Assembly (NCBI GenBank): GCA_964396245.1
Contig: CAYNEO010000014.1
Coordinates: forward strand, 4,315-68,314
Reading direction: 5' to 3'
From: an uncultured Ignavibacteriales bacterium
GTDB taxonomy: Bacteria; Zixibacteria; MSB-5A5; GN15; FEB-12
Length of the DNA: 64,000 nucleotides
The notes under the pieces were generated by a model, which saw only the letters and a list, made by a program, of their open reading frames with translations, made no database searches and was not told where the DNA came from. Each line of letters begins with the position of its first letter. Position 1 is the stretch's first letter. This document shows positions 639 through 61,371 of the stretch, piece by piece. The translations under genes were made by a program, and so were the position numbers.

Positions 639-2225
639 ATGTCATCGGAATCAGTCGAACAGCCGGATCCAAAAAAGCTCGAGGCAGCTCTTAATGAGCT
701 CCGCGTGATCAATCGTGTTCTGGACAAAATCTGCCGGGCGCGTGAAACCAATCACATCATGTCAATCATCGTTGATGAGCTGGTGGCCTACACTCAGGCC
801 GACCAGGGTGTGATTCACCTGCTCACGCCCGGGACGTCCGATGACTTCGTCACCGTGGTCAGGCGCAGCCCGAACGGTCCGGAGGAGATTCCATTCACCC
901 TCAATAACCTCATTTGCGGCTGGGTGCTCAAAAATAAACAGACATTGAAGATCGATGACCTGACTTCAGATGACCGTTTCCCGGGACTCAGTTCAAAAGA
1001 TGGTCGCTTCAGCTCGATCCTGTGCTGTCCGCTGATTGTCAGGGGAGAGGTTATCGGCATTACAAGTCTAATACGGGGCAGCGTCAAAGGGCCGTTCCAT
1101 GAGGATCACGGCAGGTTAGCAGGCATTATTGCATCGCAGTCGGCGCAGATCCTGAGCAATGCGCGCCTGCTCGAAGAGCTCGCGCGCAAAACAGAATTGC
1201 TGGAATTCTCCCAGAAAAAACTCCACGATGAGAACATTCGGCTTCGCCAGGAAATCGGCGCCACGTACGCTTTCGAAAATATCGTGGGCAAATCCGAACC
1301 CATGAAACGCGTGCTGACACTGGCCTCCAAAGTCAGCGGCAATGATGCTCCCGTCCTGATCACCGGCCCGACCGGCACCGGCAAGGAACTTCTCGCCGGC
1401 GCGATCCATCAGCGCAGCAACCGTCGCGGCAAGCCGTATGTCATCAAGAATTGCGGCGTGAAGACCGAGTCGTTGCTCGAGTCGGAACTGTTCGGCCATG
1501 TGAAAGGATCGTTCACCGGGGCCGACCGCGACAAACCCGGCCTTTTCAGGGCCGCCGACGGCGGTACGGTATTTCTCGATGAAATCGGCGACGCCCCTCT
1601 CTCGACACAGGCTGCAATTCTTCGCGTGCTCGAAACCGGCGAATATCGTCCGGTCGGCGCCACGAAATCCGAGTTCGTCGATGTCCGGATTATCTCCGCC
1701 ACCAACCGCGATCTCAAAGAGTTGATCCAGAAGGGGCAATTTCGGCAGGACCTGTATTACCGCCTGAACACCTTCACCATAGACATCCCGCCGCTTTGCC
1801 ATCGCCGTGAAGATATTCCGATTCTGGTCCACCACATTCTCCGCAAGCTGAAAGTCAAACTGCAGATGGACAACCTCAGTATCTCTCCTCGAGCGCTGGA
1901 AGTACTGTGCAATTACTCCTGGCCCGGCAACGTCAGGCAACTGGAAAACGAGCTCGAGCGCGCCGCTATTGTCTGTGATACCGACGGTATCATAGAAATC
2001 TCCGATCTCTCTCCCGATGTGCGCGGGCTCGGAGTATCGGAACCCGAGGTGAGAGAGTACCGGGGCCCTCTCAAGGAGTTGATCGAGAAAGTCGAGCGGG
2101 ACACCATCGAAGCCTGCCTCGCCGAAACCCGGGGCAATATCCTCAAATCATCCCGATTACTCGGTCTGACCCGCAAGGGCCTCAAGGACAAAATCGCCCG
2201 CTATGGGATCGAAATCGAACGCTGA
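639..2225 (+). CDS. sigma-54-dependent transcriptional activator (GAF - AAA+ - Fis-type HTH)
   Basis: 528 aa. N-terminal GAF-like region. Walker A GPTGTGKE; ESELFGHVKGSFTGA (GAFTGA-type loop); Walker B GGTVFLDEIG. C-terminal HTH GNILKSSRLLGLTRKGLKDKI. Confidence 0.95.
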   Translation: MSSESVEQPDPKKLEAALNELRVINRVLDKICRARETNHIMSIIVDELVAYTQADQGVIHLLTPGTSDDFVTVVRRSPNGPEEIPFTLNNLICGWVLKNKQTLKIDDLTSDDRFPGLSSKDGRFSSILCCPLIVRGEVIGITSLIRGSVKGPFHEDHGRLAGIIASQSAQILSNARLLEELARKTELLEFSQKKLHDENIRLRQEIGATYAFENIVGKSEPMKRVLTLASKVSGNDAPVLITGPTGTGKELLAGAIHQRSNRRGKPYVIKNCGVKTESLLESELFGHVKGSFTGADRDKPGLFRAADGGTVFLDEIGDAPLSTQAAILRVLETGEYRPVGATKSEFVDVRIISATNRDLKELIQKGQFRQDLYYRLNTFTIDIPPLCHRREDIPILVHHILRKLKVKLQMDNLSISPRALEVLCNYSWPGNVRQLENELERAAIVCDTDGIIEISDLSPDVRGLGVSEPEVREYRGPLKELIEKVERDTIEACLAETRGNILKSSRLLGLTRKGLKDKIARYGIEIER

Positions 2226-17188: not shown

Positions 17189-20100
17189 TTATCGAGGTTT
17201 TGTGATGTTATGTTTTTTCATTTTTCTTCGAAGAGTCGTCAGCGGTAACCCCAGAAACCGCGCCGCACGCGACTGATTCCACCGGTGCTGAATCAGCGCC
17301 GAGTGAATTTCAGCCCTCTCCGCTTCCAGTGCGGCTTTCTTCGACGTCTCTGAACTGCTGACGACATCGCGCATCTCCGGCGGAAGCATTTCGCGCGTGA
17401 TCATCCGCCCGGCGCCGGTGATACAACACCGCTCCACGAAATTCCGGAGTTCCCGAACATTTCCCGGCCAATCATAGGCCAGCAAGGCCTGGATAACCTC
17501 GCCGGCAAACCGCGGCGCGGCTCTGCCGGCTGAGAATATGGCGACAAAATGCTGCAATAACGGGATGATATCCGACCGACGCTCTCTCAGCGGCGGAATC
17601 TCGATATCAAACGTGTTGATCCGGTAGTACAGATCCTCCCGGAACCTGCCTTCTTTGACCATCTCGCCGAGGTCCTTGTTGGTCGCATAGATAAACCGCA
17701 CATCCGAATACGTCGTACGATTACTCCCCACCTTCTGAAATTCCCTGGTTTCCAGGACCCGAAGCACCTTCGCCTGCGTTTCGGTCGACATATCGCCGAT
17801 TTCGTCAAGCAGCAGCGTGCCGCCGTCGGCGGCCGCCAGCTTTCCATCCCGACCCTCGACACCGGTCACCGCCCGGTTGGCCACTCCGAACAGCTCGCTC
17901 TCCACCAGGTTTTCCGGAATCGCGGAGCAGTTCACTTTGACCAACGGCATTTCCCGACGGTGAGAAAGGCGGTGAATCATGTCAGCCAGTATTTCCTTGC
18001 CGGTGCCGCTTTCTCCCCTGATGAGCACCGACGCATTCGATCGCGCTATTTCCGGAAGCATGCTCAACAGCGCCTTGGTAACTTCATCGTCGGCAACGAA
18101 CATTGCGCTGCCGCCCAGCTGGTTGATGTCCTCGATAAGCTGCTGATTGATCAGCGTCATGCTCTTGTACCGCTGAATGGTCGACAGCATGACCGACAGG
18201 AAATTCGCTATCGAGTTGATATACTTCACGTCCTGATCATCGAAAAGGGCCGGTATCGTGTGGTGATCGAGATACAGTGCGCCCATCACCGAGCCGTCCG
18301 CCGCAATCGGCAGGCAGATGACCGACAGGATATTATGGTGAATGATGCTCTTGAACCGATTGGTGCGCTTGTCGTTCAGGGCATTTTCGATCACCAGCGG
18401 TTCGAGTTCGCTGCTGACCCGGAGTGGAATAGAGGAACTGATACTCTCGATATCATCGAGACTGTCCTCGTCGCAATTCTCGTAAGCTACCACCTGCAGC
18501 TTACCGGACTGCTCCTTTTTGAGCAGCAGGGCGCCCCGCTCCGCTCCGGTGGCCTCGACGGCAAACCGCACCATCGCCTTCAGCGAATCGGCGTAGCGAT
18601 CGATATTCTGGAAGATTTCCGAGATAACGTGAATGGAATGAACCAGTTGCGACTCACCTTCGGCGCTCGCCAGGGTAAGCTTGAGTTCGTCGTTGATCTT
18701 CGCCTGAAAGCTGTCGTTCGACAGCGCTTCGGCCAGCGTCCGTGCGCGCAGGAAAAACTTCCTCGCGAACTTGATTCTCGACCCGAGCAAATACAGCTGT
18801 CCGATTCGATAGGCGGACAGCATGCCGAGAAATTTCTGCTCGCCCTCCACGAGAATGGAATGAATTTCCTTGAACGTACGAATCTGCGCGTTCGGCGAAT
18901 TATCCCCCGAGCGTACCAGATTGACCAGATTGAGAAGCGACCGTAAAACAGGCGAATTCGTTTTTGCATAAGGGTCGAGGAAAGGCCCGATCAGCTTGAT
19001 CGCCCCTTTCGACGCAGTCTCGTCGGACGATAGCAGGACATAAAGCGCCGTCAGCACGGCATACATGCGGCAGTCGTATTTCAAAAGCTCTTCGATGCGC
19101 CTGAGGAGAGGAGATGCGTCCACCGGACCGCTACTGTAATAGACCTCTTGTATGGCCCTGATTGTCGCGATTTCAGCCAGCGAGCTCTTGTCGCCGATTT
19201 CTTCGAAGACCGCCGCGGCCGAGTTCAGCGCCGACGTGCACTCATCCATTTTCCCCCGGTACAGTGCGATTTCTGCGAGATTGTGGTATGCTTTACCCTG
19301 GTACGCCGATGAGTGCGCCGAGCGGAGCAGTTGCAGCGCCTGAACGCAGGACGAACGAGCCTGTTCGAGGTTGCCCGAGTTAGCTTTCAGAAAGGCATCA
19401 TAGCAGTAGTGGGAGATAAGGGCGCTTCGGTCGACATCGACTGATTTCAGGTTGAATACGCGCTGGAGCCAGTACTCGGCTTTCCGATATTCGCCTTCCC
19501 TCATGTGGGCGGCGCTGAGCGTGTAGAACACGGCCGGCAGGCGGAGAGCGGCCAAAGGCGAAACCGCGTTCTCCTCGCTCATCTTGGCATATTCAATCGC
19601 TTTCCTGAACTCCGTTCGCTCGTGATAGATCATAGCCAGTAAATTGGTGATCAGCATTACGCTGAGCCGTGAGTCGGTCGTGCGGGCGCCTTTGAGACCG
19701 TTCTGGAGGTGTCTGACGGCAGCGGGCTTGTCTCCCTGCCAGAGGCTGAGAATCGCCCGCGTATAAGTCGCCATCGTCTCAACCTCGTGGTCTCCAATTT
19801 CTATCGCCTCCTCCAGGGTTTCTTCAATTGTCGCCGCCGCCTCTTCTAATCGGCCGCGAAGACCGGCGTCGAAAGCCTGCGATCTCTTCATCTGAAGGTA
19901 ATACCTGGGGGTCTCCTTGAGCCTCTCATCGGCCAACGCACGCTCGACCAGTGTTGACCCTCGGTCATAGTCAGCCATTGAGTTATATCGAAGGACCAGC
20001 TCATACAGGAGTTCCGGATCAAACCGGTTCTGGCGCTCCACAATCTCCCGGACCTTCTCGTAGTATTCGGCCGCCCGCGAAACGCGGTTAAGGACCGTAG

Positions 20101-21379
20101 CCAGATAAGCGAGCTTGCGGTAAATCTGTTCCCGTTTCTCCGACCCGTCTTCTTCAGGATGATCTTCAAGCGCTGTGAGGGCGGTCTTGAGTCGCAAGTA
20201 CGCTTTTTGGAAATGCTCGCTTTTCTCGTCATCGCCGGCCTCGGCCACCAGCCGGTCTATATCGACCCGTTCCGGTGAACTCACCAGCCGCGAAGGGCCC
20301 GGGCCCGACGCGATAATCCGCTCCAGCCGGCTATACGTTTTCTGAAGCGTGTCATCGTCGGCCGAAAAGTGCCAGTAATCGCCGAGACGGCTGATTTCCG
20401 CCTTCTGAAAAAGGAATTTGAACGCCTTGAGTGTTTCCAGCGGCCGATTGGAATAGGCTGCATTGAAATCGATTATCAGTTCTTCGCGAAGTCCCAGCAC
20501 ACGATTTCGCTGGAAAAACGATTTCAGGCTGCTGCCGGCGCCCGCAAGTTTCCGGCGCTCGCGACAAAAACCGGTGAGCAGGCCCATGGCCAGGACGGAT
20601 TTCTGAGCCGACTCATATGCCGGTTCATCGATAAGCCCGTATTGTCTCAGTCCTTCGACAAGCGATCGCGGACGCCTGACCGGATCGTCCTGTGTGAGTT
20701 GAGCGGTAAATGCCCGTAATTTCTCGATATCTACTGCCGCCGATTCATCGGCCGACCTTGCCCGGGACTCGAGATGCTCGATTAGTTTGGCAAGCGATAC
20801 ACCGAGGGAATAGTTGTCGGACTGGGTGGTGATCCTGTCATTGGCCCGGATTTCAGGCGCAATATGCTCCGGTGTACCCAGGATTTTTGCCTTCGGACGG
20901 GAGTCGGTCTTGCACAAAAAATCGAGATCGACAAGGATAACCGACCGGCTACCGTTGACCGAATTCACCAGGAAATTTGACAGTTTCAAGTCGCAGTGGA
21001 CCAGATCCAACAGGTGCAAGTAGTCTATTACGATACATATCTGGAGCAATATCGAACTGAAATCGGCCCGAAAGTCTTCCGGTGTCAGCTCCCGCCAGAC
21101 CTCGGTGTCGAGATAAGGATACTCGACAAACAGATTGCCGGCCTCGAGACGCTTCCGCCGCGCCCACAATACCTTGTAGCTGTAGGCGCCCTTCTGACAG
21201 GCGAAAGAATCGCTCAGAATCTCCTTCAAGGCGCTGACATTAAGCATGTTAGTCGGCGAAATTGTCTTGATAAAACACTTCCGGCCGCTTGCGATGCGGG
21301 TGGCCCACCACGACTGACACATGTCGTTTTCCGCCATGAGCCGGTCGAATCGATAGGCCTTTGATTTCGGCTGTATCAT
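17189..21379 (-). CDS. Ser/Thr protein kinase - TPR - GAF - sigma-54-type AAA+ - Fis HTH fusion regulator
   Basis: 1396 aa. Kinase motifs CFIKT, HCDLKLSN, DLDF, GTPEHIAPE. Long TPR-like helical middle, then a GAF-like region. AAA+ motifs GESGTGKE, ESELFG, GGTLLLDEIG. The GAFTGA loop position reads RAVTGV (17858-17875). C-terminal HTH NQSRAARFLGLPLTTLRRKMKK. Confidence 0.95.
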   Translation of the reverse strand: MIQPKSKAYRFDRLMAENDMCQSWWATRIASGRKCFIKTISPTNMLNVSALKEILSDSFACQKGAYSYKVLWARRKRLEAGNLFVEYPYLDTEVWRELTPEDFRADFSSILLQICIVIDYLHLLDLVHCDLKLSNFLVNSVNGSRSVILVDLDFLCKTDSRPKAKILGTPEHIAPEIRANDRITTQSDNYSLGVSLAKLIEHLESRARSADESAAVDIEKLRAFTAQLTQDDPVRRPRSLVEGLRQYGLIDEPAYESAQKSVLAMGLLTGFCRERRKLAGAGSSLKSFFQRNRVLGLREELIIDFNAAYSNRPLETLKAFKFLFQKAEISRLGDYWHFSADDDTLQKTYSRLERIIASGPGPSRLVSSPERVDIDRLVAEAGDDEKSEHFQKAYLRLKTALTALEDHPEEDGSEKREQIYRKLAYLATVLNRVSRAAEYYEKVREIVERQNRFDPELLYELVLRYNSMADYDRGSTLVERALADERLKETPRYYLQMKRSQAFDAGLRGRLEEAAATIEETLEEAIEIGDHEVETMATYTRAILSLWQGDKPAAVRHLQNGLKGARTTDSRLSVMLITNLLAMIYHERTEFRKAIEYAKMSEENAVSPLAALRLPAVFYTLSAAHMREGEYRKAEYWLQRVFNLKSVDVDRSALISHYCYDAFLKANSGNLEQARSSCVQALQLLRSAHSSAYQGKAYHNLAEIALYRGKMDECTSALNSAAAVFEEIGDKSSLAEIATIRAIQEVYYSSGPVDASPLLRRIEELLKYDCRMYAVLTALYVLLSSDETASKGAIKLIGPFLDPYAKTNSPVLRSLLNLVNLVRSGDNSPNAQIRTFKEIHSILVEGEQKFLGMLSAYRIGQLYLLGSRIKFARKFFLRARTLAEALSNDSFQAKINDELKLTLASAEGESQLVHSIHVISEIFQNIDRYADSLKAMVRFAVEATGAERGALLLKKEQSGKLQVVAYENCDEDSLDDIESISSSIPLRVSSELEPLVIENALNDKRTNRFKSIIHHNILSVICLPIAADGSVMGALYLDHHTIPALFDDQDVKYINSIANFLSVMLSTIQRYKSMTLINQQLIEDINQLGGSAMFVADDEVTKALLSMLPEIARSNASVLIRGESGTGKEILADMIHRLSHRREMPLVKVNCSAIPENLVESELFGVANRAVTGVEGRDGKLAAADGGTLLLDEIGDMSTETQAKVLRVLETREFQKVGSNRTTYSDVRFIYATNKDLGEMVKEGRFREDLYYRINTFDIEIPPLRERRSDIIPLLQHFVAIFSAGRAAPRFAGEVIQALLAYDWPGNVRELRNFVERCCITGAGRMITREMLPPEMRDVVSSSETSKKAALEAERAEIHSALIQHRWNQSRAARFLGLPLTTLRRKMKKHNITKPR

Positions 21380-30385: not shown

Positions 30386-31402
30386 TTACTTCAGTAAGAC
30401 CATCTTTCGTGTCTGGTAACCCATGTCGGTAACAACCCGGTAGAAGTACACGCCGCTGGCAAGACCGGAAGCGTCATAGGTTACCTCATGATCACCGGCT
30501 CCGAGGTTTCCGAGATCCCGGCTGTCAACATATCGACCGAGAACATCGATCACCTGAAGCTCAACGCGCGAGCGCGACGGCAACGAGAATTGTATGGTCG
30601 TGGTCGGGTTGAACGGGTTCGGGAAATTCTGGTACACCGCGAATCCGCCCGGAAGAATAGTGCCGTCCTCGTCATCGACATCGGTGATCGTGAAGAACAG
30701 GTCGACATTACCGTCGATTTTCACGGTCGGATCCAGCATCGAATAGACGCTGAACGACGCGTTATCGACCGTGTCGGCGCTGAACGTCGGCGAACTGATT
30801 TCAAAGTACACGTAGATCGTTTCGCCCGGCTCGGCATAGAACATCGTATCCTGAGGCAGGGTATTGAATCCCGCGAGGCTGTTCGTGGCCGAAACACCGT
30901 AGAAATCGAGCCCGTCACCGTCGTTGCGGATACCGACCTCGAAACGCACCGTGTCGTTAAATGTCACCGCTTTCGCCGTCGGCAGCTCGATCGCCGTCAG
31001 GGCGATAGTCGCGGTCGCCGAGAGACGGACATCCTTCTGTGCCTGGTCGGTGAATGTCGGATCGCCCGACACGACCGTCGCCGGTCGGCCGTTAATCTCG
31101 AAACGGATCGTATCGCCATCCTCGGCGCCTTCGTCGGGAACGGTCCCGCTCTCGTCACCATAAACAGGCATGAACCCGTAGTAGCCGGCCGTATGGACGG
31201 TATCGATTCCGCACAATACGTTGTCGGGGTCGTAGGCGGTAATAATCGAACCGGGGACAAGCGGCTGGCCAAGATAGGTCGAGGCGCTGTCGTAGAACGA
31301 CGTGAAATACGGCGTCGGGCTGATCTGCGCCGTGGCGGCGCCAATGCATACCAGCGTGAGGATTCCGGTTATCAGTAGTTTTGTTAATACCAGTTTATTC
31401 AC
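30386..31402 (-). CDS. secreted protein with T9SS C-terminal sorting domain
   Basis: 338 aa. GTG start with GGAG RBS; signal peptide. C-terminus NFPNPFNPTTTIQFSLP...GVYFYRVVTDMGYQTRKMVLLK is a T9SS type-A CTD. The N-terminal module (aa 42-115) is shared with the neighbouring giant protein. Confidence 0.9.
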   Translation of the reverse strand: MNKLVLTKLLITGILTLVCIGAATAQISPTPYFTSFYDSASTYLGQPLVPGSIITAYDPDNVLCGIDTVHTAGYYGFMPVYGDESGTVPDEGAEDGDTIRFEINGRPATVVSGDPTFTDQAQKDVRLSATATIALTAIELPTAKAVTFNDTVRFEVGIRNDGDGLDFYGVSATNSLAGFNTLPQDTMFYAEPGETIYVYFEISSPTFSADTVDNASFSVYSMLDPTVKIDGNVDLFFTITDVDDEDGTILPGGFAVYQNFPNPFNPTTTIQFSLPSRSRVELQVIDVLGRYVDSRDLGNLGAGDHEVTYDASGLASGVYFYRVVTDMGYQTRKMVLLK

Positions 31403-31468: not shown

Positions 31469-34400
31469 TTACTTCAACAGCATCATCTTCCTGGTTTCAG
31501 TATACTTATCGGTTGACAGGCGGTAGAAGTAAACCCCCGAAGCAACCTGGTCACCGTTCATATCGCGGCCGTTCCAGGTCACGACATTCTCACCGGCGGT
31601 AGCCATACCGTCGAACGGTACCGCAACGACCTTACCGAGGACGTTGTACACCGTGATCGTGGCCTTGGCCGTTACCGGCATGGTGAAATTGATATTGGTC
31701 GTCGGGTTGAACGGGTTCGGGTAGTTCTGAGCCAGCGAGTACGTCGTCGGGAGCGTGTTGTCCGACGCTGTCTTGGAGGTCAGGGCGCCTACCTCGATCC
31801 TGTCGCCATTGGTGGTCCAGGTGAACCGTTCAGTGGTTTCCGCGCCGTTGACGGTCAGGTAGAACGGATCGCCTCTCTTGAGACCGGTGACACCGCTGTT
31901 ATTGGCGTCGTCGGCATACACCGGCATGAACCCGAACTTGCCGGACTCCATGACGGTAAATCCGCCGATCTTCTTGCCTTCAGTGCTGTACGCGGCGATA
32001 TCCGCGCCGGGCATGACCGCCTTGCCGTCAAGCGTCAGATCGGCTGAGTAGACGTTCACCCAGCTTGTGGTCGGCGTCACGTCAGGGCGCACCAGTTTCG
32101 CGGCGGCTTCAGCCTGACGATCAACACCATGAGAGGCAACCACCGGACCCTGACCCGGGTAGATCAAGTCGCCGTCGGCGCTGACCTTGACCCAGTAACC
32201 GAAGCACGGGCCCATCTGCTCGAGCTTGTTAAACTCGGTCTGTCCCGGAACAAATATCTGGATACCGGCGTCGAACCCGTAAGCAATCATCACGTCGCCC
32301 AGGATAGATTCGAGGGCGGCATCGGGAGCCAGCGTATAGTCGGGCAGGTAACTGACCAGGTTCCATCCGGTCGTGACCGGAATCGGAGTGTTGGACAGCA
32401 CCGGCAGTCCGCTCAACTCGAGCGTAATCCCGTCTGTGCAACTGGTGTCAACCTTGATCCAGTAGCCACTCATATGATCGACATACCAGAGGGTCGAGAA
32501 CTGCTGGAGATCGGGATCGTAGGTGAGACCGCCGCGTTCGAAACCGAGAATAACATCGATGCAATCCATGTACGGGCCGAGAACATCGAGAATGTTATCC
32601 GTCTCGGTGTTCACCGACCAGCTCACGAGGTTCCAGCCGGGGGCGAGGTCGCAGGTCTTGGTGATGGTGGCACCGGCTGAGAGGCAAACCTGCTTCTGAG
32701 CATATGCAGGCGGATAAATGACGTCGCCATCGGCCATTGCTTCTTCGCCGTTGACGTAGAAGCTGATGATATCGTCGGTCGTGGCGCCTTCATCGATAGC
32801 CGAACCCGCCGAGTCACGGTATACCGGCATGAAACGGTACTTGCCGGGCTCGTCGACCATCTGCTGGCCGCAGAGCACACCGTCCGGATCGTATGCTTCG
32901 ACAATCGATCCGACCGGAAGCGGTACGCCGAGCAGGGTGTTGGTTTCGCAATAGTAATCAACCCATTGGTCGGTCGGGGTCAGTTCGGCGAGCGGATGCA
33001 GCACAATCTGCACGCCCTTGTCCCCGAAATTCAGATTGGTAACGGTGCCGGGATAGTAACCGGCCTTGTAGGCATAGAGATCGAACGGGATCGTGGTGAA
33101 ATCCGCAAAAGCGAAGTTGCCGGCCCATCCGGAGCTCGTCTGTTGAATAGCCTCGCCGTACGGGAAGTCGGCATAGAGTTCCACCATGGCGCCTTCGACA
33201 CTCTTGAATCCGCCGAGTCCGTCGGGTTCAACAACCCAGCCGCAGACATAATTGGCGCTCGTGTCGACCACAATAGCGCCGGCGACAAACTCAGGCGTCT
33301 TCACTTCGATGCCACCGCCGCAGTCGCGGTCAAAGAAGACCGGGTCGACTGCGAGGGGAGCTCCCAGACCAAAACTAACCGTTCCCGGACCAATATCACA
33401 CGAAACGGTGAAATGCAGATTGGCCCAGTTGTAACCGGAACCGGGGAGGAGCGGCGTGGCGGAAGTACCAACCTGTTCGCTCAGCATGACATAGGATTCG
33501 TCATTGTTAATATCCACAATGTGATCGAAATCAGCGATATCGGAACCGGCATACGATACCGAATCGAGATGTACCATTCCGGAAGTCCAGTTAAGCTGGA
33601 GCCCGGCGCCGTGCAATTCGCAGCTGCTGGCGAAAGTCACCGGTACGGTAACCTGCATGCCCGGTACAGCCGGCTCGGTGGCCACAATGACCGTATCGGA
33701 GCTCGGCGCCGGGAAGACCTGCAGATGAACGGTAAACTGCGTGAATTTCGGATCACACACGATATCGTCGGTCGACGTGACTATCACAATAGCCTCATAC
33801 GTGCCCGCGGCGACACCGTTCGGGTCGACATACAGCGGTACCGTTGCCGGGGTCGCTCCCTCGAACGGGCCGGTTTCTCCGAAACTCAGCCAGGCGGCGT
33901 CGATCGGTTTCGTGGCCGTAAAGGCAAAATTCTCGTTACTGTCGGAGCTGTACACCATGACGGAATCGAAAAGCGGCGCGAGATACTCGGCGCCCTCGAT
34001 GGCCGTGAAATTCACCAGCGTATCCGACACCAGCACATTGACGCACGGCTTTTCGTTAACAACGATGTTAAGACAATACGTCGCCGACGAGAAACAGGTG
34101 TTCTCTGCGTTTTCGGCGCTGGAGAAAGTGATACAGGCCTGATATTCACCCGGCGTATCATACTGCACGTCGTAGCCCACAATCACGGTCGCCGGGGTGA
34201 CATCGCCGCTGAACGAGACGGCGAAATTGGTATCGGCATCCATCACGAAAGTGATTTCGCCGGGGCCGGAACTCGTGACCTCCAGTGTATCGGTGAAATT
34301 CGTGGTCTCACCGGCCGTAATCTCGACGGTGGCCGCAGTATCCGAAAGGACAAGCGACGGACACGGCAATATGACCAGTTTCACGTAGGCATATTGCGGC

Positions 34401-36154
34401 GAGTTGAGCACTTCTTCCGACGACACCATGACGCTGTCAACATACGTGCCCGGACCGACTCCGGTGGCATTGATATTGACCGTCACGTCGGAAGGCGTCG
34501 TGCCGGCCGAATCGGCAGTCAGCCCGATCCACGTGGACGCCGTGGTGGCGACAAACGCTACCGCGTATCCGCCCTGCTCGTCGACATTAAAGGTATTGGA
34601 GGGATAACTGACGTCTCCCTCGGAAATTTCAAACATCAGAGTGTCGGGCGTTATAGTCAAATACTTGCCCGGCTCATTCACTGTCAGCGTAACCGGCACC
34701 TTCAGATCTTCTTCCGCATCGACCGCTGCGATGAGAACGGTGTCCTCGTACACTCCCGCGGCGACGCCGGTCGGGTCAACGGTAACCAGGACCTTGCCCG
34801 GCGTGGTATCGTCGGTAACATTGACAGTCGTCCACGCCTGCGTGGCGGTAGCGGCGAATATGATTTCAAATCCGCCCTGCTCGGTCACTGTCAGGCTGTC
34901 GAGCAAAGCTGTTGTCGAGCCCTCGGTAGCCGTAAAAGACAGGCTCGTCGGGTCGACCTGAAGGAACTTGGGCGGTTCCACTATGGTGAATTCCACCGGT
35001 ACCTTTATCGACGCGGTCGGAGCCGCCGCACTGATGGTCACCGTATCCCGGTAAGTACCGGCGATAAGTCCGGTCGGGTCCGCCGAAACCTGGATACTGC
35101 CCGGGGTGGTGTTGTCGAGCAGGTTAACACTCAGCCACGCTTGCGCGGTCGTGGCGCTGAACGTAATCTCCGCTCCGCCCTGCTCGGTGACCGCGATCGT
35201 GTCAAGCAGTGGTCCGGTATCCCCCTGCGTGGCGTTGAAGGACAGGCTGGTCGGATCCGCAAGCAAAACCCTGGGACCCTCCACCACGAGCTGGACTTTT
35301 ACCCACTGCGGCGAATTGACCGCTTCTTCCGAAGAAACCATCACGGAATCGGTATATGCTCCTTCAGAAAGCCCCGTAATATTGACATTGACAGTTACAT
35401 CGCCCGGTGTTGTTCCCGTCGGGTTGGTCAGTGAAATCCAGGAGGAAGTCTCGGAAGCAGTATAGGCGATATTATCTGCCGATGCCTCGCTTACCGTGAA
35501 ATTCTGTGGGGCGGGATCAGCGTCCCCCTGGATTGCCGTAAAATCCAACTGTGATGGGGAGACCTCCAATTGCCCGGTCACCGGAACATAATCACAGTCA
35601 CGAATTTCAAGGTTTGAATTGACATAGGGCAAGTAAGATTCCAGATCTGGATAATCAATGAATTGCACTTTGACACCGGCGGAGTAAACCGTATCCTTGA
35701 CAAAAACGACGTCATTGACGCTCCAGTCCGAGAGGGTGAAGTTGTAAGTCGCCCAGAGACGGCGTTCCGGAGCCGGGGGAATACCGAATTTCCCCAGTCC
35801 AAAGGTGATACTCACAAACTGAAATCTGCGCTTCGCATTCGTGGAGTCCAGAGACGACCGATCATAAAAAAGAAGCTGGTCAAAGTTGTCCTTAGCCAGA
35901 CTGCTTGGCGTGGCTCCGGTCATGGTCATGTTTGGATTGCTCCATGTCCATCCGATGGAAGCCGCGAACACCTGGTTGGAGTCATTGAAGGCCCAAGCTT
36001 CAAGGACGACGTTGAAATCACTGCTCGATGCACACGGCGTGATGGTAGCCTCGAGCGCCATCGTATCCATGGCGCCCAGGTCGCCTGCCGCCGCGGCCGG
36101 CACTGCCAGTGCCGTCAGCAGGCCCATGAGGATTACGACTAGTTTTAGCTTCAT
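31469..36154 (-). CDS. giant secreted multi-domain protein with T9SS C-terminal sorting domain
   Basis: 1561 aa. RBS GGGAGG; signal peptide. Six tandem ~100-aa Ig/BACON-like repeats (aa ~194-812). Cohesin-like region (aa ~818-965), then a CarboxypepD_reg-like region. Two copies of the AYDPDGVLCG...FMPVY module. Two GWNLVS...GYW(I/V)KV repeats. CTD NYPNPFNPTT...GVYFYRLSTDKYTETRKMMLLK. Confidence 0.95.
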   Translation of the reverse strand: MKLKLVVILMGLLTALAVPAAAAGDLGAMDTMALEATITPCASSSDFNVVLEAWAFNDSNQVFAASIGWTWSNPNMTMTGATPSSLAKDNFDQLLFYDRSSLDSTNAKRRFQFVSITFGLGKFGIPPAPERRLWATYNFTLSDWSVNDVVFVKDTVYSAGVKVQFIDYPDLESYLPYVNSNLEIRDCDYVPVTGQLEVSPSQLDFTAIQGDADPAPQNFTVSEASADNIAYTASETSSWISLTNPTGTTPGDVTVNVNITGLSEGAYTDSVMVSSEEAVNSPQWVKVQLVVEGPRVLLADPTSLSFNATQGDTGPLLDTIAVTEQGGAEITFSATTAQAWLSVNLLDNTTPGSIQVSADPTGLIAGTYRDTVTISAAAPTASIKVPVEFTIVEPPKFLQVDPTSLSFTATEGSTTALLDSLTVTEQGGFEIIFAATATQAWTTVNVTDDTTPGKVLVTVDPTGVAAGVYEDTVLIAAVDAEEDLKVPVTLTVNEPGKYLTITPDTLMFEISEGDVSYPSNTFNVDEQGGYAVAFVATTASTWIGLTADSAGTTPSDVTVNINATGVGPGTYVDSVMVSSEEVLNSPQYAYVKLVILPCPSLVLSDTAATVEITAGETTNFTDTLEVTSSGPGEITFVMDADTNFAVSFSGDVTPATVIVGYDVQYDTPGEYQACITFSSAENAENTCFSSATYCLNIVVNEKPCVNVLVSDTLVNFTAIEGAEYLAPLFDSVMVYSSDSNENFAFTATKPIDAAWLSFGETGPFEGATPATVPLYVDPNGVAAGTYEAIVIVTSTDDIVCDPKFTQFTVHLQVFPAPSSDTVIVATEPAVPGMQVTVPVTFASSCELHGAGLQLNWTSGMVHLDSVSYAGSDIADFDHIVDINNDESYVMLSEQVGTSATPLLPGSGYNWANLHFTVSCDIGPGTVSFGLGAPLAVDPVFFDRDCGGGIEVKTPEFVAGAIVVDTSANYVCGWVVEPDGLGGFKSVEGAMVELYADFPYGEAIQQTSSGWAGNFAFADFTTIPFDLYAYKAGYYPGTVTNLNFGDKGVQIVLHPLAELTPTDQWVDYYCETNTLLGVPLPVGSIVEAYDPDGVLCGQQMVDEPGKYRFMPVYRDSAGSAIDEGATTDDIISFYVNGEEAMADGDVIYPPAYAQKQVCLSAGATITKTCDLAPGWNLVSWSVNTETDNILDVLGPYMDCIDVILGFERGGLTYDPDLQQFSTLWYVDHMSGYWIKVDTSCTDGITLELSGLPVLSNTPIPVTTGWNLVSYLPDYTLAPDAALESILGDVMIAYGFDAGIQIFVPGQTEFNKLEQMGPCFGYWVKVSADGDLIYPGQGPVVASHGVDRQAEAAAKLVRPDVTPTTSWVNVYSADLTLDGKAVMPGADIAAYSTEGKKIGGFTVMESGKFGFMPVYADDANNSGVTGLKRGDPFYLTVNGAETTERFTWTTNGDRIEVGALTSKTASDNTLPTTYSLAQNYPNPFNPTTNINFTMPVTAKATITVYNVLGKVVAVPFDGMATAGENVVTWNGRDMNGDQVASGVYFYRLSTDKYTETRKMMLLK
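33719..35575 (-). repeat. tandem array of six ~300-nt coding repeats (Ig/BACON-like domains)
   Basis: Repeat consensus visible in the protein: P(T/D)SL(S/M)F.A..G........(V/I)TEQGG..I.F.ATT...W........TTPG...V.(V/A)DPTG...G.Y.D.V.I. Units 1 and 4 share GTTP(G/S)DVTVN(V/I)N.TG...G.Y.DSVMVSSEE.(V/L)NSPQ. Confidence 0.7.
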
Positions 36155-50111: not shown

Positions 50112-50648
50112 ATGCGAAAAATCTTACTGGTAACGGCAATCATCTCTATCATCTGCGGATCCGTCGCGGGATTCGACGGTAAACGCAAGGGGTTCGTCCT
50201 GGGAGGCGGGATCGGTTTTTCACCCTACATCCACTGGGCATTCGATGATTATGCCTCGAAGGACGAAGGCGCCGGGATCGGCCTGCAGATTATTATTGGC
50301 TACGCCTGGGATGACCGGAACATGATCGTTTATGAGGAACAGGCATCCGGTTACTCGGAGGGCGGCGGAAGTATAGTTCAAGGCGGCAGATTCGTCAGCT
50401 GGCATCATTATTTCGGACCGGCCGGCCGGACTTTCTTCACCACCGCCGGTCTGGGACTTTACACCTGGGCGACCGGTAGCGACGATTTCAACGACTCCGG
50501 GGCGGCGTTGCTGGTCGGAGGAGGCTATGAATTCCACCGGCACTGGCAGGTGGGGCTTTTCATGTCCACCGGTAAGAGTAGTCGCGGAAGCTATGGAGGA
50601 ATGACTCACACCACTGTCGATTTGATGATCGGCGGCGTGGCCTTTTAA
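50112..50648 (+). CDS. putative outer-membrane beta-barrel protein
   Basis: 178 aa. RBS GGGAGG and a signal peptide. Gly/aromatic-rich alternating segments. C-terminal ...LMIGGVAF (terminal Phe). Confidence 0.72.
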   Translation: MRKILLVTAIISIICGSVAGFDGKRKGFVLGGGIGFSPYIHWAFDDYASKDEGAGIGLQIIIGYAWDDRNMIVYEEQASGYSEGGGSIVQGGRFVSWHHYFGPAGRTFFTTAGLGLYTWATGSDDFNDSGAALLVGGGYEFHRHWQVGLFMSTGKSSRGSYGGMTHTTVDLMIGGVAF

Positions 50649-50685
50649 ACGCAATCTTGTGTTAATGATCTAGCTGTAAATAGAA

Positions 50686-50720
50686 ACGGCGCACCCTCGG
50701 GCGCGCCGTTTGTTCCTTTG
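50686..50720. terminator. bidirectional terminator between convergent genes
   Basis: ACGGCGC-a-CCC-tc-GGG-c-GCGCCGT is flanked by T-rich tracts on both strands (TTGTTCCTTTGT on +, TTCTATTT on -). It lies between stops at 50648 (+) and 50723 (-). Confidence 0.65.
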
Positions 50721-50722
50721 TA

Positions 50723-51430
50723 TCAGGCAACTTCGGGTTTCCAGATTTCCCAGACCTTGCCGACCAGGTTCGGGCCGACCTTCAACGTCGGCTTGCCGGG
50801 CTGCCATTCGGCCGGAGTCGCCTCCGCGCCCTTGGTTGACCGGACATGCTGGAACGCCTTGATCTGCCGGACCGTTTCGATGAAATTCCGTCCGACCGGC
50901 GGCGTCAGGATTTCCATCCCCTGCACCACGCCGTCGGGATCAATAATAAATCTCCCGCGGACATCCACACCCGCATTTTCATCATACACGCCGTACACGC
51001 GGCCCAGATGACCGCCGGCGTCGGAAAGCATCGGGTACGGGATACCACCTTCAACCATCTTGGACAACTCCTGTTCGTGCCAGGTCTTGTGCACGAAAAT
51101 GGAATCGACCGAACAGGCATAAACGAAAACGTCGAGATCCTGAAGTGTTTTGTACGAAGCGGCGACCGTCGCTAGCTCGGTCGGTCAGACGAAGGTGAAG
51201 TCACCGGGATAGAAACAAAGCAGCGCCCAGTGACCGAGGGCATCGGAGAGTTTCACCTGCGTGAACCCACCCTTGTGATACGCCGGCGCCTCGAAATCGG
51301 GAGCCTTGCGGCCTACCATGATAGACATCTTCGGTTCCTCTCTTTCGGTTGGGTGTTCGGGAGTCGTTTCCGGTTCGGTCTGCCCGACCACGCGTCCGGT
51401 GGGACGGGCGCAGCCTACAGTGTCAGCCAT
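50723..51430 (-). CDS. peroxiredoxin (AhpC/Prx1 type) with in-frame TGA at the peroxidatic Cys position; probable selenoprotein
   Basis: Track ORFs 51185..51430 and 50723..51094 are in the same frame and are separated only by TGA 51185-51187. Read-through gives ...LLCFYPGDFTFV-U-PTELATVAASY...SVDSIFVHKTWHEQ...RGRFIIDPDG..., which is the FYPxDFTFVCPTE active site. ATG 51430 has an AAGGAGG RBS. ATG 51328 (MSIMVGRKAPDFEAP) is the alternative, canonical-length start. Confidence 0.82.
51157..51187 (-). other. UGA recoding site plus candidate bacterial SECIS hairpin
   Basis: mRNA reads UGA-CCGACC-GAGC-UA-GCGA-CGG-UCGC-C-GCUU. Lower stem GAGC/GCUU, upper stem GCGA/UCGC, and apical CGG(U) 17-19 nt after the UGA. 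An alternative 6-bp stem is CGACCG/CGGUCG. Folded by eye only. Confidence 0.5.
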
Positions 51431-51481
51431 ACGACCTCCTTTCGATATATTAACAACGTGTCTGGTTCGTGGCTCTGCCTA

Positions 51482-51614: not shown

Positions 51615-52592
51615 ATGCACTATCAACCGCTTCCACGCCTGGACACGGACAACGACGATCTCAAGCAACACTTGCTGTCGGTGTGCCGCCTGCGCCCCGG
51701 TCAGGTCTGGCACGACCCGCTCGGACGACATATTGTCGGCTGCGGCGATGCTACCGACCGTCGCTTCGTACTGTCACTCTTCCGGCGCATGAAACGCGCC
51801 ACGCTCGCGGTGCAGGACCCCCCGTACAATCTCGTCATGTTCGAAAAGCAATCGGTCGAAGAGTTCATCGCCTGGTGCCGCCGGTGGATCGATGTCACTC
51901 ATCATGTCCTCGACCGCGACGCCGCCCTCTATGTCTGGCTCGGCGCCGACCAGCGCGACAATTTCCAGCCGTTGCCGCAGTTCATGATGATGATGTCGGA
52001 GACTGACTTTAATGCCCGCTCGTTCATCACCATGCGAAACCAGCGCGGCTACGGAACCCAGCACAACTGGATGTCGGTCAGGCAGGAGCTGCTCTACTAT
52101 ATCAAGGGGCGTCCCGATTTCAACGTGCAGTACACCGATATCCCGAAAATCCTCCGCGGATACTACAAAGACGTGGGCGGTCGGACCACCGAAAACCTCG
52201 AACGCTCCAAATCACCGACTATCCGCCCCGGAAATGTCTGGGTCGATATTCAGCAGGTGTTCTATCGGATGGAGGAAAACGTCAACGGCTGCTACGCCCA
52301 GAAACCGTTGAAAGCGATTGAACGAATTGTGGAAGCGTCATCGCGCCCGGACGACGTCGTCGCAGACTTCTTCTCGCACTCCGGCACCACGCTGTTAGCT
52401 GCCGAAAGAACCGGGCGGCAGTGCGTAACATGCGAAATTGATCCGATTTTCGCCGAGATCACGATCCGCCGTTTGGAACACTTCCGCGAGACCGGGCGCA
52501 CCGGATGGCAGGCCGGCAACCCGTTCGAGAACGAGCTCCCCGACCGATGGTCCGCAATAAAAGTCGAGAGCGCCTCCCGGCGTGTCTGGTAA
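51615..52592 (+). CDS. DNA methyltransferase (N6-adenine/N4-cytosine, beta class; DPPY type)
   Basis: 325 aa. HIVGCGDATD; motif IV LAVQDPPYNL precedes the SAM-binding motif VADFFSHSGTTLLAAERTGRQCVTCEID. No restriction or specificity gene is adjacent. Confidence 0.9.
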   Translation: MHYQPLPRLDTDNDDLKQHLLSVCRLRPGQVWHDPLGRHIVGCGDATDRRFVLSLFRRMKRATLAVQDPPYNLVMFEKQSVEEFIAWCRRWIDVTHHVLDRDAALYVWLGADQRDNFQPLPQFMMMMSETDFNARSFITMRNQRGYGTQHNWMSVRQELLYYIKGRPDFNVQYTDIPKILRGYYKDVGGRTTENLERSKSPTIRPGNVWVDIQQVFYRMEENVNGCYAQKPLKAIERIVEASSRPDDVVADFFSHSGTTLLAAERTGRQCVTCEIDPIFAEITIRRLEHFRETGRTGWQAGNPFENELPDRWSAIKVESASRRVW

Positions 52593-54081: not shown

Positions 54082-56319
54082 CTACTCAACCCGATCCATG
54101 AACCGGTTCATGGAATTGTAGAACACGTCCGACAGCGACTCGATATCGACGTCGATCAGGTCATTGACAACCAGCCGTTTTCCCGTAACCGTGCCGATCT
54201 TGACCGCCGGAATGCCCTTTTCGGTGAAGAACTCCACGAGGTCAGCTTGATCCGTCGGGCAGGTCACGATCACCCGCGACTGACTCTCGCCAAACAGCAG
54301 GCAGTCCCGCCGAATATGCTCGACCATCTGAATCTGCGCTCCGATCTGCCGGTCCCGGTTCGAGATACAGCATTCCGCCAGCGCGATTGCCAGACCGCCG
54401 TCCGAAACATCGTGCGCCGATTTCACCATCCCCGCCCGGATAGCCTCGAGCAGTGCCTCCTGGAGCTTCTTCTCGAAATCGAGATCGAGCGCGGGGACTT
54501 CACCGCGTGTCATGCTGTGGATCGTGTGAAGGTACTCGGTGCCGCCCAGTTCCTCCTCGGACTCGCCGAGCAGGATAATGTCATCCCCCTCGTCCTTGAA
54601 CCACTGCGTCGTGATATGATCTAGCCTCTCGATCAGGCCGATCATCCCGATCGTCGGCGTGGGGAAGACGGCGCGGTTGGGATCCTCGTTATAAAACGAC
54701 ACGTTGCCGCCGGTGACCGGAGTGCCGAACACGCGGCAGGCTTTGCCCATGCCGGCGACAGCTTCGGAGAAGCCGTAATAGATCTCCGGTTTATATGGAT
54801 TGCCGAAGTTAAGGCAGTTGGTGATCGCGAGCGGTTTGCCGCCCGAACAGACAATGTTCCGCGCCGCCTCAGCCACCGCCATTTCCGCCCCAAGACGCGG
54901 ATTGAGATAGCAGTAGCGCCCGTTGCAGTCGGTGGTCATCGCCAGCGCCTTGTCGGTCTTGCGAATCCGAAGCACCGCGGCGTCGGAGCCGGGTCCCACG
55001 GCCGTATTGGTGCGGACCATCGAATCATACTGCTCGAACACCCATCCCTTGTGACAGAGGTTCGGTGAGCCGAGCATCGTGACGAGTGTCTCGTTCCAGT
55101 CCCGATCATCCGAAATTTGGCTCATATCGAGCGTCTTCAGTTCATCCATGTATGCCGGGCGCTTCGTGTCCCGGTGATAGACCGGCGCGCCGCCGCCGAG
55201 TACGAGGTCCCACGACGGTACCTGCGAGACTGCTTCGCCGTTCAATTTTACCGTCATGAGGCCGTCGGATGTCACATGGCCAATGATAGTTGAATCGAGT
55301 CCCCACTTGTCGAAGACTTTGCGGACCTCGCCTTCCTTGCCCTTCTTCACGCAGACCAGCATCCGCTCCTGCGATTCCGACAGGAGAATCTCGTACGGCA
55401 CCATGCCTTCTTCGCGCACCGGCACCAGGTCGATATCGAGGACGACACCGGCCTCACCTTTGGCGGACATTTCCGATGACGAGCAGGTAATTCCCGCGGC
55501 GCCCATATCCTGAATACCGACAATCAAACCTTTTTCGATAATCTCGAGCGTGGCTTCGAGCAGCAGTTTCTCCGTAAACGGGTCGCCTATCTGCACCGAG
55601 GGACGTTTCGCCTCGGATGCTTCTGAGAGTTCTTCCGAGGCAAATGTCGCCCCGTGGATACCGTCGCGACCGGTCTTCGAACCGACAATCATCAACGGGT
55701 TGCCCTCACCGGTGGCAATCGCCGATGCCAGACCGTCGTGCTTGACAATCCCGACCGCCATCGCATTGACCAGCGGGTTGCCGGTGTACGCTTCGTCGAA
55801 ATAGACTTCACCCGCCACGGTCGGCACGCCGAACGAGTTGCCGTAATCGCCGATACCGCGCACCACGCCGTCGACAAGATATCTGACGCGTGGATTGTTG
55901 GGGCTCCCGAACCTGAGGGAATTGAGCGATGCTATCGGGCGTGCACCCATGGTGAAAATGTCCCGAAGGATACCGCCGACACCGGTCGCCGCGCCCTGAT
56001 ACGGTTCGATTGCCGACGGATGGTTGTGCGATTCGATCTTGAACACAACCGCGAGACCGTCGCCGATATCAACCGCACCGGCATTTTCCTCGCCGGCTTT
56101 CGCCAGGAGCGCTTCGCCTTCGCGCGGAAGCGTTTTCAGCAGCGCAATCGAGTTCTTGTACGAGCAGTGCTCCGACCACATCACCGAGAAGACACCCAGC
56201 TCGGTGAAATTCGGTTCGCGGCCCAGTATCGTCTTGATCCGCTCGTATTCCTCGTCGGTAATTCCGTGACTCTTAACGGTTTCGAGTGTCACCGGGGGTT
56301 GGACAAACTCTTTTGCCAT
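54082..56319 (-). CDS. purL: phosphoribosylformylglycinamidine synthase subunit PurL
   Basis: 745 aa. [41 protein letters not shown] and the duplicated AIRS-like halves are typical of FGAM synthase II. Confidence 0.97.

Positions 56320-59412: not shown

Positions 59413-61371
<1,959 letters not shown>

Follow-up and report, generated by a model that had tools for sequence, protein, structure and literature searches.

A predicted selenocysteine-containing PrxU peroxiredoxin gene with a conserved in-frame TGA in a Candidatus Zixiibacteriota genome

Introduction

Selenocysteine (Sec)-containing peroxiredoxins (Sec-Prx) have been known since 2001 and are among the commoner bacterial selenoproteins of anaerobes. 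PMC13188914, which cites Sohling et al. (2001), places Sec-Prx among the bacterial selenoprotein families with experimental verification, and an earlier survey counted 12 Sec-Prx genes (Zhang et al., 2006; PMC1794560). In PrxU of Eubacterium (Peptoclostridium) acidaminophilum, Sec occupies the peroxidatic position of the PxxxTxxU motif within FYPGDFTFVU, and the protein lacks a C-terminal resolving Cys. The same arrangement is predicted for the product of the locus described here, which lies in a Zixibacteria metagenome-assembled genome (MAG), whereas the E. acidaminophilum gene belongs to a clostridium. The published model of the bacterial SECIS element (bSECIS) specifies a loop of 3–9 nt with G in the first two loop positions, 16–37 nt from the UGA, on an upper stem of at least 4 bp (PMC13188914).

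Here, a 64-kb stretch of DNA (the window) was analyzed, in which two minus-strand ORFs very probably form one intact gene, presumed to be expressed, for a Sec-containing thioredoxin-dependent PrxU of a Candidatus Zixiibacteriota genome. The prxU locus is a new member of an experimentally verified selenoprotein family, real but ordinary, and the result is biologically expected. The role of an invariant N-terminal Cys arm is its only possibly new angle.

Gene Structure and Family Membership of prxU

Translation of the minus strand from 51430 to 50723 placed both ORFs in one frame, with the TGA at 51187..51185 as the sole internal stop and neither a frameshift nor a further stop in the prxU frame (Table 1). 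The first ORF (51430..51185) starts with ATG and encodes 81 aa; the second (51094..50723) starts with an internal GTG and encodes 123 aa. The context of the internal TGA was LLCFYPGDFTFV-TGA-PTELATVAASYK, and the TGA coincides with the peroxidatic-Cys position of FYPGDFTFV-x-PTE. Translation therefore agreed with a preliminary description of this DNA, which had reported two ORFs in one frame separated by a single TGA and a Prx active-site block with TGA in place of the catalytic Cys codon.

The start at ATG 51430 is backed by the cross-phylum conservation of the encoded N-terminal motif, and Met occupied the Met35 column in 151 of 201 aligned PrxU sequences. Downstream of the gene, the terminator-like hairpin had a minimum free energy (MFE) of -22.7 kcal/mol (z = -4.31), and none of 200 shuffles folded as well; a consensus terminator scan of the minus strand did not list it.

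Table 1. Features of the prxU locus, with positions in the window.
Feature	Position	Strand	Remarks
Shine-Dalgarno-like AAAGGAGG	51435..51442	minus	4 nt upstream of ATG 51430..51428; read from sequence
Complete prxU CDS	50723..51430	minus	235 codons including one predicted Sec codon, plus terminal TGA stop 50725..50723
N-terminal extension, residues 1-34	51329..51430	minus	MADTVGCARPTGRVVGQ, then E/P/T-rich linker
Internal ATG (Met35)	51326..51328	minus	"Short form" start chosen by many gene callers
Cys72 codon (LLCFYPGD)	51215..51217	minus	Second conserved Cys, 10 residues before Sec
In-frame TGA, predicted Sec codon, residue 82	51185..51187	minus	Peroxidatic position of PxxxTxxU motif
GAGC-UA-GCGA-CGG-UCGC-C-GCUU hairpin	51157..51178	minus	Mutually exclusive with conserved register
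SECIS-like hairpin, family-conserved register	51158..51173	minus	Covariation, 99 orthologues
Thr205 codon in EATPAEW	50816..50818	minus	Position of C-terminal resolving Cys of AhpC/Prx1
Intrinsic-terminator-like hairpin	50678..50711	minus	12-bp G+C-rich stem, then UUUCUAUUU; begins 12 nt past stop

For profile searches of the product, Cys was placed at the TGA codon. The product scored 371.7 bits against NCBIfam NF040737 (peroxi_PrxU; equivalog cutoff, 270; E = 1.5e-111), and its residues 5–233 were aligned with profile positions 2–232 of 233, the N-terminal extension included. The score against the AhpC equivalog TIGR03137 was 193.9 bits, under the cutoff of 272. Pfam matches were AhpC-TSA (7.1e-36) and 1-cysPrx_C, and Pro75, Thr79, and U82 of YPGDFTFV-TGA aligned with the invariant P, T, and Cp (alignment A2). 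The view that the Sec-Prx family is not new, for which PrxU of E. acidaminophilum had been named as precedent, was well founded. The thioredoxin-dependent peroxidase activity of the product is a prediction, with the name taken from the NCBIfam annotation. The closest sequenced orthologues found were only 74% identical to the product.

Conservation of the TGA Codon Across Phyla

The pattern F-T-F-V-TGA-x-T-E had at least 120 matches in GTDB species representatives, and approximately 115 of the matches listed were Prx genes. TGA at the homologous codon was found in species of many anaerobic phyla, with loci in Desulfobacterota, Chloroflexota, Clostridia, Synergistota, Acidobacteriota, Planctomycetota, Calditrichota, Ignavibacteria, Zixibacteria, and others, and also at loci L005–L008. 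Since the TGA falls on one catalytic codon of a conserved motif and recurs in more than 100 species, its position is not due to chance. Alignment with Cys homologues yielded the expected U/C column: among the best 120 homologues, the residue at the Sec column was W in 91, Cys in 15, and G in one, and other entries among the nearest homologues were split. The DNA under the homologues' "W" reads TGA, and five Cys-type orthologues (L249–L251, L142, and L235) carry TGC or TGT at the homologous codon.

A Covarying Hairpin Downstream of the TGA

Across 99 orthologues, a SECIS-like hairpin follows the UGA in a conserved register. With the U of UGA as nt 1, the conserved stem pairs nt 14/15–20 with nt 25–30/31 and presents nt 21–24 as a tetraloop. 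In the window, the pairs are A15-U30, G16-C29, C17-G28, G18-C27, and C20-G25, with A19.C26 mismatched, and the loop is G21-G22-U23-C24 (51167..51164). The register was 93.2% paired across the orthologues, with a covariation score of 0.507; shuffles gave 0.174 (0/500 as high), and sliding the register gave no more than 0.171. Cells in which both sides of a pair had changed numbered 160, compared to 56 in shuffles. RNAalifold with RIBOSUM scoring returned exactly pairs 14-31 to 20-25 for the 99-sequence alignment, and with default scoring it predicted zero pairs for the same alignment.

Pairs 19-26 and 20-25 and the loop residues G22-U23 are partly forced by Ala-Val-Ala codons, and therefore only third-position covariation is independent of coding. 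At the synonymous third positions 21/24, G-C was present in 52/99 and A-U in 44/99 sequences, and correspondingly the loops were GGUC in 52 and AGUU in 44; at the synonymous third positions 18/27, G-C was present in 59/99 and A-U in 31/99.

The hairpin of the window agrees with the bSECIS model, with its GGUC loop 17 nt after the UGA and five pairs plus one A.C mismatch in the stem, but it is weak, at -3.3 kcal/mol in the conserved register compared to a family median of -9.5 kcal/mol. The mismatch arises from a Thr codon (ATVA instead of S/A-AVA) and is shared with L031 and L049. The 71 nt past the UGA were less stable than their shuffles (z = +1.98), and a SECIS would not have been supported on thermodynamic grounds alone. 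No SECIS family was found when Rfam was scanned at gathering thresholds over the whole window and at E up to 10 over 51050–51300; since coverage of bacterial SECIS elements is poor, this result carries no information.

The preliminary description had also drawn a SECIS at this place. A covarying hairpin does follow the TGA, and the drawn pairing is the local MFE structure of the window sequence (-6.4 to -6.9 kcal/mol), more stable than the conserved register; its register, however, is not the conserved one. It has a CGG loop 16 nt after the UGA and a 4-bp upper stem when set against the bSECIS model, but across the 99 orthologues it was only 50.8% paired and showed no covariation (398/500 shuffles as high). 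GCGA-CGG-UCGC was therefore rejected as the conserved SECIS register for want of comparative support.

In the conserved register, Cys-type Prx that share the FYPGDFTFVC motif were only 39% paired. Only two of the 119 hits in this control, obtained by a metagenome scan, were true PrxU orthologues, and three more were added by look-up. Each of the five formed 4–6 of the 8 pairs, and none formed the full stem. As judged from these sequences, the contrast between Sec-type and Cys-type hairpins is real, though it is not all-or-none and n = 5.

Decoding of the TGA and Genomic Context

These features suggest the following course of translation. Initiation would occur at ATG 51430, and the ribosome would not terminate at UGA 51187..51185, where the hairpin lies 11–27 nt downstream with its GGUC tetraloop approximately 17 nt after the UGA. 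The hairpin would recruit SelB.GTP.Sec-tRNA(Sec), and Sec would be inserted at residue 82. The ribosome would then proceed to the second TGA (50725..50723), which has no such hairpin and is followed by the terminator.

The presence of prxU implies a Sec-decoding trait in this Zixibacteria lineage, and we infer that the host organism decodes Sec. None of selA, selB, selD, and tRNA-Sec was found in the 64-kb window, and ARAGORN runs on the window and on every fetched locus were negative for tRNA-Sec. The only AIRS-domain protein in the window (54082–56319) is PurL-like with an FGAR-AT linker. Among 102 candidate pairs of ORFs joined by a single TGA in the rest of the window, none resembled a second selenoprotein. 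A tblastn search of the neighboring genes against all fetched loci revealed no synteny with named genomes.

The strongest competing explanation, though an improbable one, is that the UGA is decoded as something other than Sec, either under a Trp or Gly code (4 or 25) or by read-through with a near-cognate Cys- or Trp-tRNA. Insertion of Sec in the host is itself inferred, and database gene callers give W in most of the best 120 homologues and G in one. The W calls are nevertheless artefacts, since translating the loci with code 11 does not give the database protein. TGA terminates 16 of 41 well-supported genes in the window, prxU included, the G + C content is approximately 57%, and the host was placed in Zixibacteria by FtsH, all of which argue against a reassigned code. 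The FtsH is encoded at 59413–61371, and a partial FtsH with 99% identity to it is named as Candidatus Zixiibacteriota. To our knowledge, Zixibacteria is not a lineage known to reassign TGA. Moreover, a Prx with Trp or Gly as its peroxidatic residue would be catalytically inactive, and a hairpin at a fixed distance with G-U in its loop is needed by SelB-dependent decoding but not by plain read-through. Insertion of Sec, presumably with SelB contacting the loop, is therefore the preferred reading.

Purifying Selection Across the TGA

The same TGA was present in independent metagenome assemblies, namely four contigs (L001–L004) from three samples (ERZ27291580, ERR1811657/ERZ935554, and JGI 3300038686) processed by different pipelines. 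The window and these contigs differed at 21 codons of the gene, in every case synonymously, and 18 of these codons lie 3' of the TGA. This pattern indicates that the coding sequence across the TGA is under purifying selection.

It also bears on the explanation that prxU is a true pseudogene, in which a TGC/TGT to TGA nonsense mutation killed a Cys-type Prx and left only an inactive fragment of 81 residues. Neutrality predicts that approximately 1/4 to 1/3 of the differences would be synonymous, so that the outcome of 18/18 3' of the TGA would have a probability of approximately 1e-9 or less. The TGA is, in addition, fixed in the three independent samples, frameshifts and other stops are absent, and the same codon is TGA in approximately 115 species among the matches listed, together with the covarying hairpin. 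Against this evidence, the lack of Sec machinery within the window, a SECIS weaker than in most orthologues, and the splitting of prxU by public gene callers leave a pseudogene very improbable. The least credible explanation is a one-base error of sequencing or assembly in what is really an ordinary Cys codon. TGA is indeed one base away from TGC/TGT, but the four contigs agree on the TGA while differing from the window at 21 other sites in the gene, and orthologues likewise carry TGA.

The N-terminal Arm and Proposed Recycling of Sec82

The 34-aa extension had been regarded as unusual, but it proved to be a family hallmark, present in 160 of 215 PrxU family members and covered by the PrxU profile. 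The original PrxU is reportedly a protein of 203 residues with U47, without the extension. It contains a G-C-x-R/K-P motif (GCARP, residues 6–10; Cys7 codon, 51412..51410), in which P10 was conserved in 143/162 and G6 in 122/159 sequences. Cys72 was Cys in 201/215 PrxU and invariant in alignment A2. At the other end of the protein, EVCPANW had been said to read EATPAEW here, and Thr205 indeed aligned with the resolving Cys (KVCPANW) of the AhpC structure 5y63. The label "1-Sec enzyme" given to the product was nonetheless premature because the extension carries an invariant Cys; this Cys7 and the conserved Cys72 had been overlooked.

In the proposed catalytic cycle, the Sec82 selenolate in the PxxxTxxU pocket would reduce peroxides and become a selenenic acid. 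With Thr205 in place of the usual C-terminal resolving Cys, the enzyme would be recycled through a different thiol, for which Cys7, invariant and carried on the flexible N-terminal arm, is the most plausible candidate, or else directly by thioredoxin. We tentatively suggest that Cys7, on a flexible tether of approximately 30 residues, resolves the Sec82 selenenic acid in an undescribed Prx recycling route, although we consider this possibility rather doubtful. Such a route may involve an intra- or inter-subunit selenenylsulfide, followed by thioredoxin reduction, and may replace the C-terminal Cys lost in most of the family.

Several observations may favor a role of Cys7. The residue was Cys in 160/160 long forms, the canonical resolving position was Thr in 164 of 215 PrxU (Cys in 22, other residues in 29), and disorder is predicted for the linker. 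In the AF2 model of the Cys-type homologue P0001, the core was confident, linker residues 18–35 had pLDDT <50, and the motif had approximately 51–58. Other observations may speak against it. The arm was not confidently docked in the same model, PrxU short forms without the arm exist, and the anticorrelation of N-terminal and C-terminal Cys within the PrxU clade was not significant (p = 0.29). Mutual exclusion of the two Cys reached apparent significance only with sequences of another Sec-Prx subfamily in the test; this was lost within the PrxU clade, and it was therefore not used as support.

Annotation of prxU

The gene had been predicted to be mis-annotated, and public calls do give fragments of 81 and 133 aa, or W in 91 of the best 120 homologues. 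The false Trp at the catalytic residue in these 91 entries arose because gene callers switched the genetic code on short contigs. The PrxU family is poorly represented in public protein collections, where gene callers routinely split or mistranslate it, and false Trp and split PrxU entries can lead astray both the inference of genetic codes and the analysis of active sites. The prxU gene should be annotated as one CDS with a transl_except for Sec at 51187..51185, not as a pseudogene or as two fragments.

Comparison With Known Systems

The product shares its fold and active-site motif with typical 2-Cys Prx of the AhpC/Prx1 type (PDB 5y63, Enterococcus AhpC; 1we0, Amphibacillus AhpC; 1yep, Salmonella AhpC), to which it aligned from residues 32–38 through 211–226 (E = 1e-43 to 1e-40). 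These enzymes differ in having Cys for Sec and a C-terminal resolving Cys in KVCPANW, compared to EATPAEW here. They also lack the N-terminal arm, and residues 1–31 of the product are covered by no solved chain.

Like the SECIS of Escherichia coli fdhF, the hairpin of prxU lies inside the CDS just 3' of the UGA and carries a GGUC tetraloop with G-U exposed (nt 22–23 here). The fdhF loop is G22-G23-U24-C25, of which G23 and U24 are needed for SelB. In contrast to fdhF, the stem of prxU is much shorter, with no evident bulged U and with a mismatch under the closing pair; there is no sequence similarity outside the loop, and the SelB contact is putative here.

In mammalian MsrB1, the catalytic Sec95 is served by a resolving Cys4 on a flexible N-terminus. 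Although the fold and chemistry of MsrB1 are unrelated and the role of Cys7 in PrxU is hypothetical, the two proteins are alike in that a catalytic Sec is paired with a conserved Cys near a disordered N-terminus.

Gene structure and family assignment of prxU

Minus-strand translation of prxU gave one frame with a single internal stop, flanked as LLCFYPGDFTFV-TGA-PTELATVAASYK. The read-through product with Cys at the TGA matched Pfam AhpC-TSA (7.1e-36) and 1-cysPrx_C, and the TGA therefore falls on the peroxidatic-Cys codon. The product scored 371.7 bits against the NCBIfam equivalog model NF040737 ('peroxi_PrxU'; cutoff, 270), which is dedicated to selenocysteine (Sec) peroxiredoxins, with residues 5-233 aligned to profile positions 2-232 of 233. 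Its score against the AhpC model TIGR03137 was 193.9 bits, under the cutoff of 272. The score above the equivalog cutoff indicates that the gene is a PrxU family member at the NCBI naming level. The preliminary description had proposed the shared frame with its lone TGA, the replaced catalytic Cys codon, and a Sec-type enzyme of the known PrxU kind, and the translation and profile matches agree on each point.

Features of the prxU locus and other window genes
Feature	Position	Strand	Remarks
prxU	51430..50723	minus	235 codons
Upstream ORF	51430..51185	minus	81 aa; ATG start preceded by AAAGGAGG
Internal TGA	51187..51185	minus	proposed Sec codon
SECIS-like hairpin, conserved register	51173..51158	minus	loop GGUC 51167..51164
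Downstream ORF	51094..50723	minus	same frame as upstream ORF
Stop TGA of prxU	50723-50725	minus	terminator hairpin 12 nt later
N6/N4 DNA methylase	51615-52592	divergent to prxU	upstream neighbour
Gly-rich ORF	50112-50648	plus	178 aa; downstream of prxU terminator; weak outer-membrane beta-barrel match (OMP_b-brl, 7e-5)
Segment missing from contig L001	50017-50719		~700 nt
GAF-sigma54 activator	639-2225		second such activator
Histidine kinase	9468-13856	minus	1462 aa; at least 8 PAS domains
Kinase-activator fusion	17189-21379	minus	1396 aa; N-terminal Ser/Thr protein-kinase, TPR repeats, GAF, sigma-54 activator AAA+, Fis-type HTH
T9SS-sorted protein	30386-31402		
Secreted protein	31469-36154	minus	1561 aa; BACON_2 domains, T9SS C-terminal sorting domain
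AIRS protein	54082-56319		PurL-like
FtsH	59413-61371		

Error, truncation, or recoding

The gene was found on four contigs from three independent samples, ERZ27291580 (ENA), ERR1811657 (ENA and Logan), and JGI 3300038686, in which public gene callers break it into 81 + 133 aa, the mis-annotation that had been predicted. Over 708 positions, these contigs retained the TGA and showed 21 differences relative to the window. All 21 changed codons were synonymous and 18 of them lay 3' of the TGA, a pattern inconsistent with a truncated gene whose 3' part is untranslated. A reassigned genetic code was ruled out because TGA terminates 16 of 41 well-supported window genes, and prxU too. With two TGAs, one proposed to be read as Sec with a hairpin after it and the other a real stop before a terminator, prxU shows compactly, within a single gene, how context determines the way a codon is read.

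Distribution of the in-frame TGA

The best 120 protein-collection matches to PrxU were 62-72% identical and carried W (91), Cys (15), G (1), S (1), or R (1) at the catalytic position, so that the proposed comparison with Cys homologues held. When four 'W' entries (L005-L008) were checked at the DNA level, the codon was TGA and translation with code 11 did not give the database protein, which argues that the 'W' is a gene-calling artefact masking Sec codons. On short contigs the callers evidently adopted genetic code 4/25 to bridge the Sec codon, which gave rise to spurious 'W' active sites and spurious alternative-code assignments (homologues P0002-P0120; L005-L008).

When GTDB species representatives were scanned directly for F-T-F-V-TGA-x-T-E, at least 120 matches were obtained. 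About 115 of the matches listed were in-frame-TGA peroxiredoxin genes; the matches listed spanned Desulfobacterota, Anaerolineae/Chloroflexota, Clostridia, Synergistota, Acidobacteriota, Planctomycetota, Calditrichota, Ignavibacteria, Zixibacteria, Spirochaetes, and some Bacillus/Neobacillus. The nearest to the window protein among them were L056 (Calditrichaceae) and L029 (Thermodesulfobacteriota), each 74% identical, and the Zixibacteria representative L068 also encodes a Sec-type PrxU, whose hairpin is perfect.

Two other Sec-peroxiredoxin groups were observed. One (L009, L014, L016, L080, L082, L087, L109, and L122; motif FFYPADFTFV-U-ATEFAALAEQ) was seen in Rokubacteria, Planctomycetota, Krumholzibacteria, and Thermodesulfovibrionia; it retains the resolving Cys at the C-terminal site (E[VG]CPSKW), and its UGA is followed by a hairpin unlike that of PrxU (GCUGCUC-UGGCA-GAGCAGC). 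The other, in Bacillus/Neobacillus and other Bacillota (L026, L053, L084, L107, L118, and L123), is shorter, with 139 residues after U, the motif FFY[PAGS]SDFTFVUPTELAAVAA, the same GGUC hairpin, and upstream regions that contain Cys yet are unlike the PrxU arm.

A covarying hairpin follows the UGA

Numbering starts at the U of UGA (nt 1). The sequences 3' of the UGA in 99 distinct PrxU-type genes aligned without gaps. Nucleotides 14-21 were 93.2% paired with nt 24-31, and loop nt 21-24 read GGUC (52/99) or AGUU (44/99), G22 and U23 being invariant. Helix cells altered on both sides numbered 160 versus 56 in shuffles, and the covariation score was 0.507 versus 0.174, a value reached in 0 of 500 shuffles; with the partner slid, it was at most 0.171. 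Ala-Val-Ala codons partly force pairs 19-26 and 20-25 and the loop G-U. Since the covarying sites are synonymous third positions (21/24: G-C in 52 sequences, A-U in 44; 18/27: G-C in 59, A-U in 31; 15/30: five pair types), coding does not account for the covariation. RNAalifold returned exactly pairs 14-31 to 20-25 with RIBOSUM scoring and no pairs with default scoring on the same alignment. The geometry agrees with the bSECIS consensus of a 3-9 nt loop with G within its first two positions, 16-37 nt from the UGA (PMC13188914).

All six inner pairs formed in 81% of Sec-type genes, and Cys-type peroxiredoxins sharing the FYPGDFTFVC motif were 39% paired in the conserved register. Five Cys-type PrxU orthologues (L249 from Aggregatilinea lenta, L250, L251, L142, and L235) kept 4-6 of 8 pairs, the full stem in none; the retained pairs may be left over from Sec-to-Cys conversion or reflect codon bias. 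Even the GGUC loop persists in L249 and L251, and a divergent FUR-family gene adjoins prxU in L250.

The window hairpin is a weak copy, in which a Thr codon (ACG) gives an A.C mismatch at 19-26, common to the window, L031, and L049. With the mismatch open, the conserved register gave -3.3 kcal/mol (family median, -9.5), and a shifted GCGA-CGG-UCGC plus GAGC/GCUU pairing (about -6.9 kcal/mol) was the more stable local fold. A SECIS 3' of the TGA in this shifted register had been proposed earlier; the element stands as the covarying family hairpin, but its register does not, with 50.8% pairing and no covariation across the family. For this reason the conserved register is taken as the functional one, that in the window mRNA itself being less certain.

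Locus and host

prxU stands alone at its locus, and the terminator-like hairpin downstream is strong (-22.7 kcal/mol, z = -4.3). In the 98-99% identical contig L001, which carries the same gene, DinB is 58 nt away from this terminator, and the segment missing there is an indel specific to the strain. Among 47 window ORFs surveyed with Pfam, none was SelA, SelB, or SelD, and tRNA-Sec was absent from the 64-kb window, whose sole tRNA is tRNA-Arg; Sec decoding by this organism is thus something we infer. The FtsH was 100% identical to an NCBI protein, 99% to a partial Candidatus Zixiibacteriota FtsH, and 77-80% to those of other Zixibacteria MAGs. T9SS sorting domains in the window agree with an FCB-group organism.

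N-terminal arm and comparison with known peroxiredoxins

The N-terminal extension, initially regarded as unusual, proved to be a family hallmark that lies within the NF040737 model and is present in 160 of 215 aligned PrxU sequences. Its Cys7 was Cys in 160/160; a conserved R/K-P (P10 in 143/162) and a variable acidic/Pro-rich linker come next. Cys72 (LCFYPG) was kept in 201/215, and the earlier '1-Sec enzyme' label was corrected on these counts. At the canonical resolving position, 164 of the 215 had Thr and 22 had Cys. In the AlphaFold2 model of P0001, a Cys-type homologue, the core was confident (pLDDT >90), linker residues 18-35 were disordered (<50), and the motif was weakly ordered (about 51-58); no solved structures cover the arm. 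A tethered resolving Cys in the arm is a reasonable hypothesis, kept at that level because N- and C-terminal Cys were not significantly anticorrelated within the PrxU clade (p = 0.29), and PrxU could possibly be recycled via this invariant Cys.

Sec-containing peroxiredoxin is described in a 2026 review (PMC13188914), citing Sohling et al. (2001), as an experimentally verified bacterial selenoprotein family, and an earlier count gave 12 such genes, for which five Cys-to-Sec events were inferred (Zhang et al., 2006; PMC1794560). The window prxU is thus of a known protein kind in a host that is new at the phylum level. In 5y63, the closest solved AhpC, the resolving Cys lies in KVCPANW, whereas the window PrxU has Thr205 there, within the C-terminal motif EATPAEW, as had been noted from the sequence.
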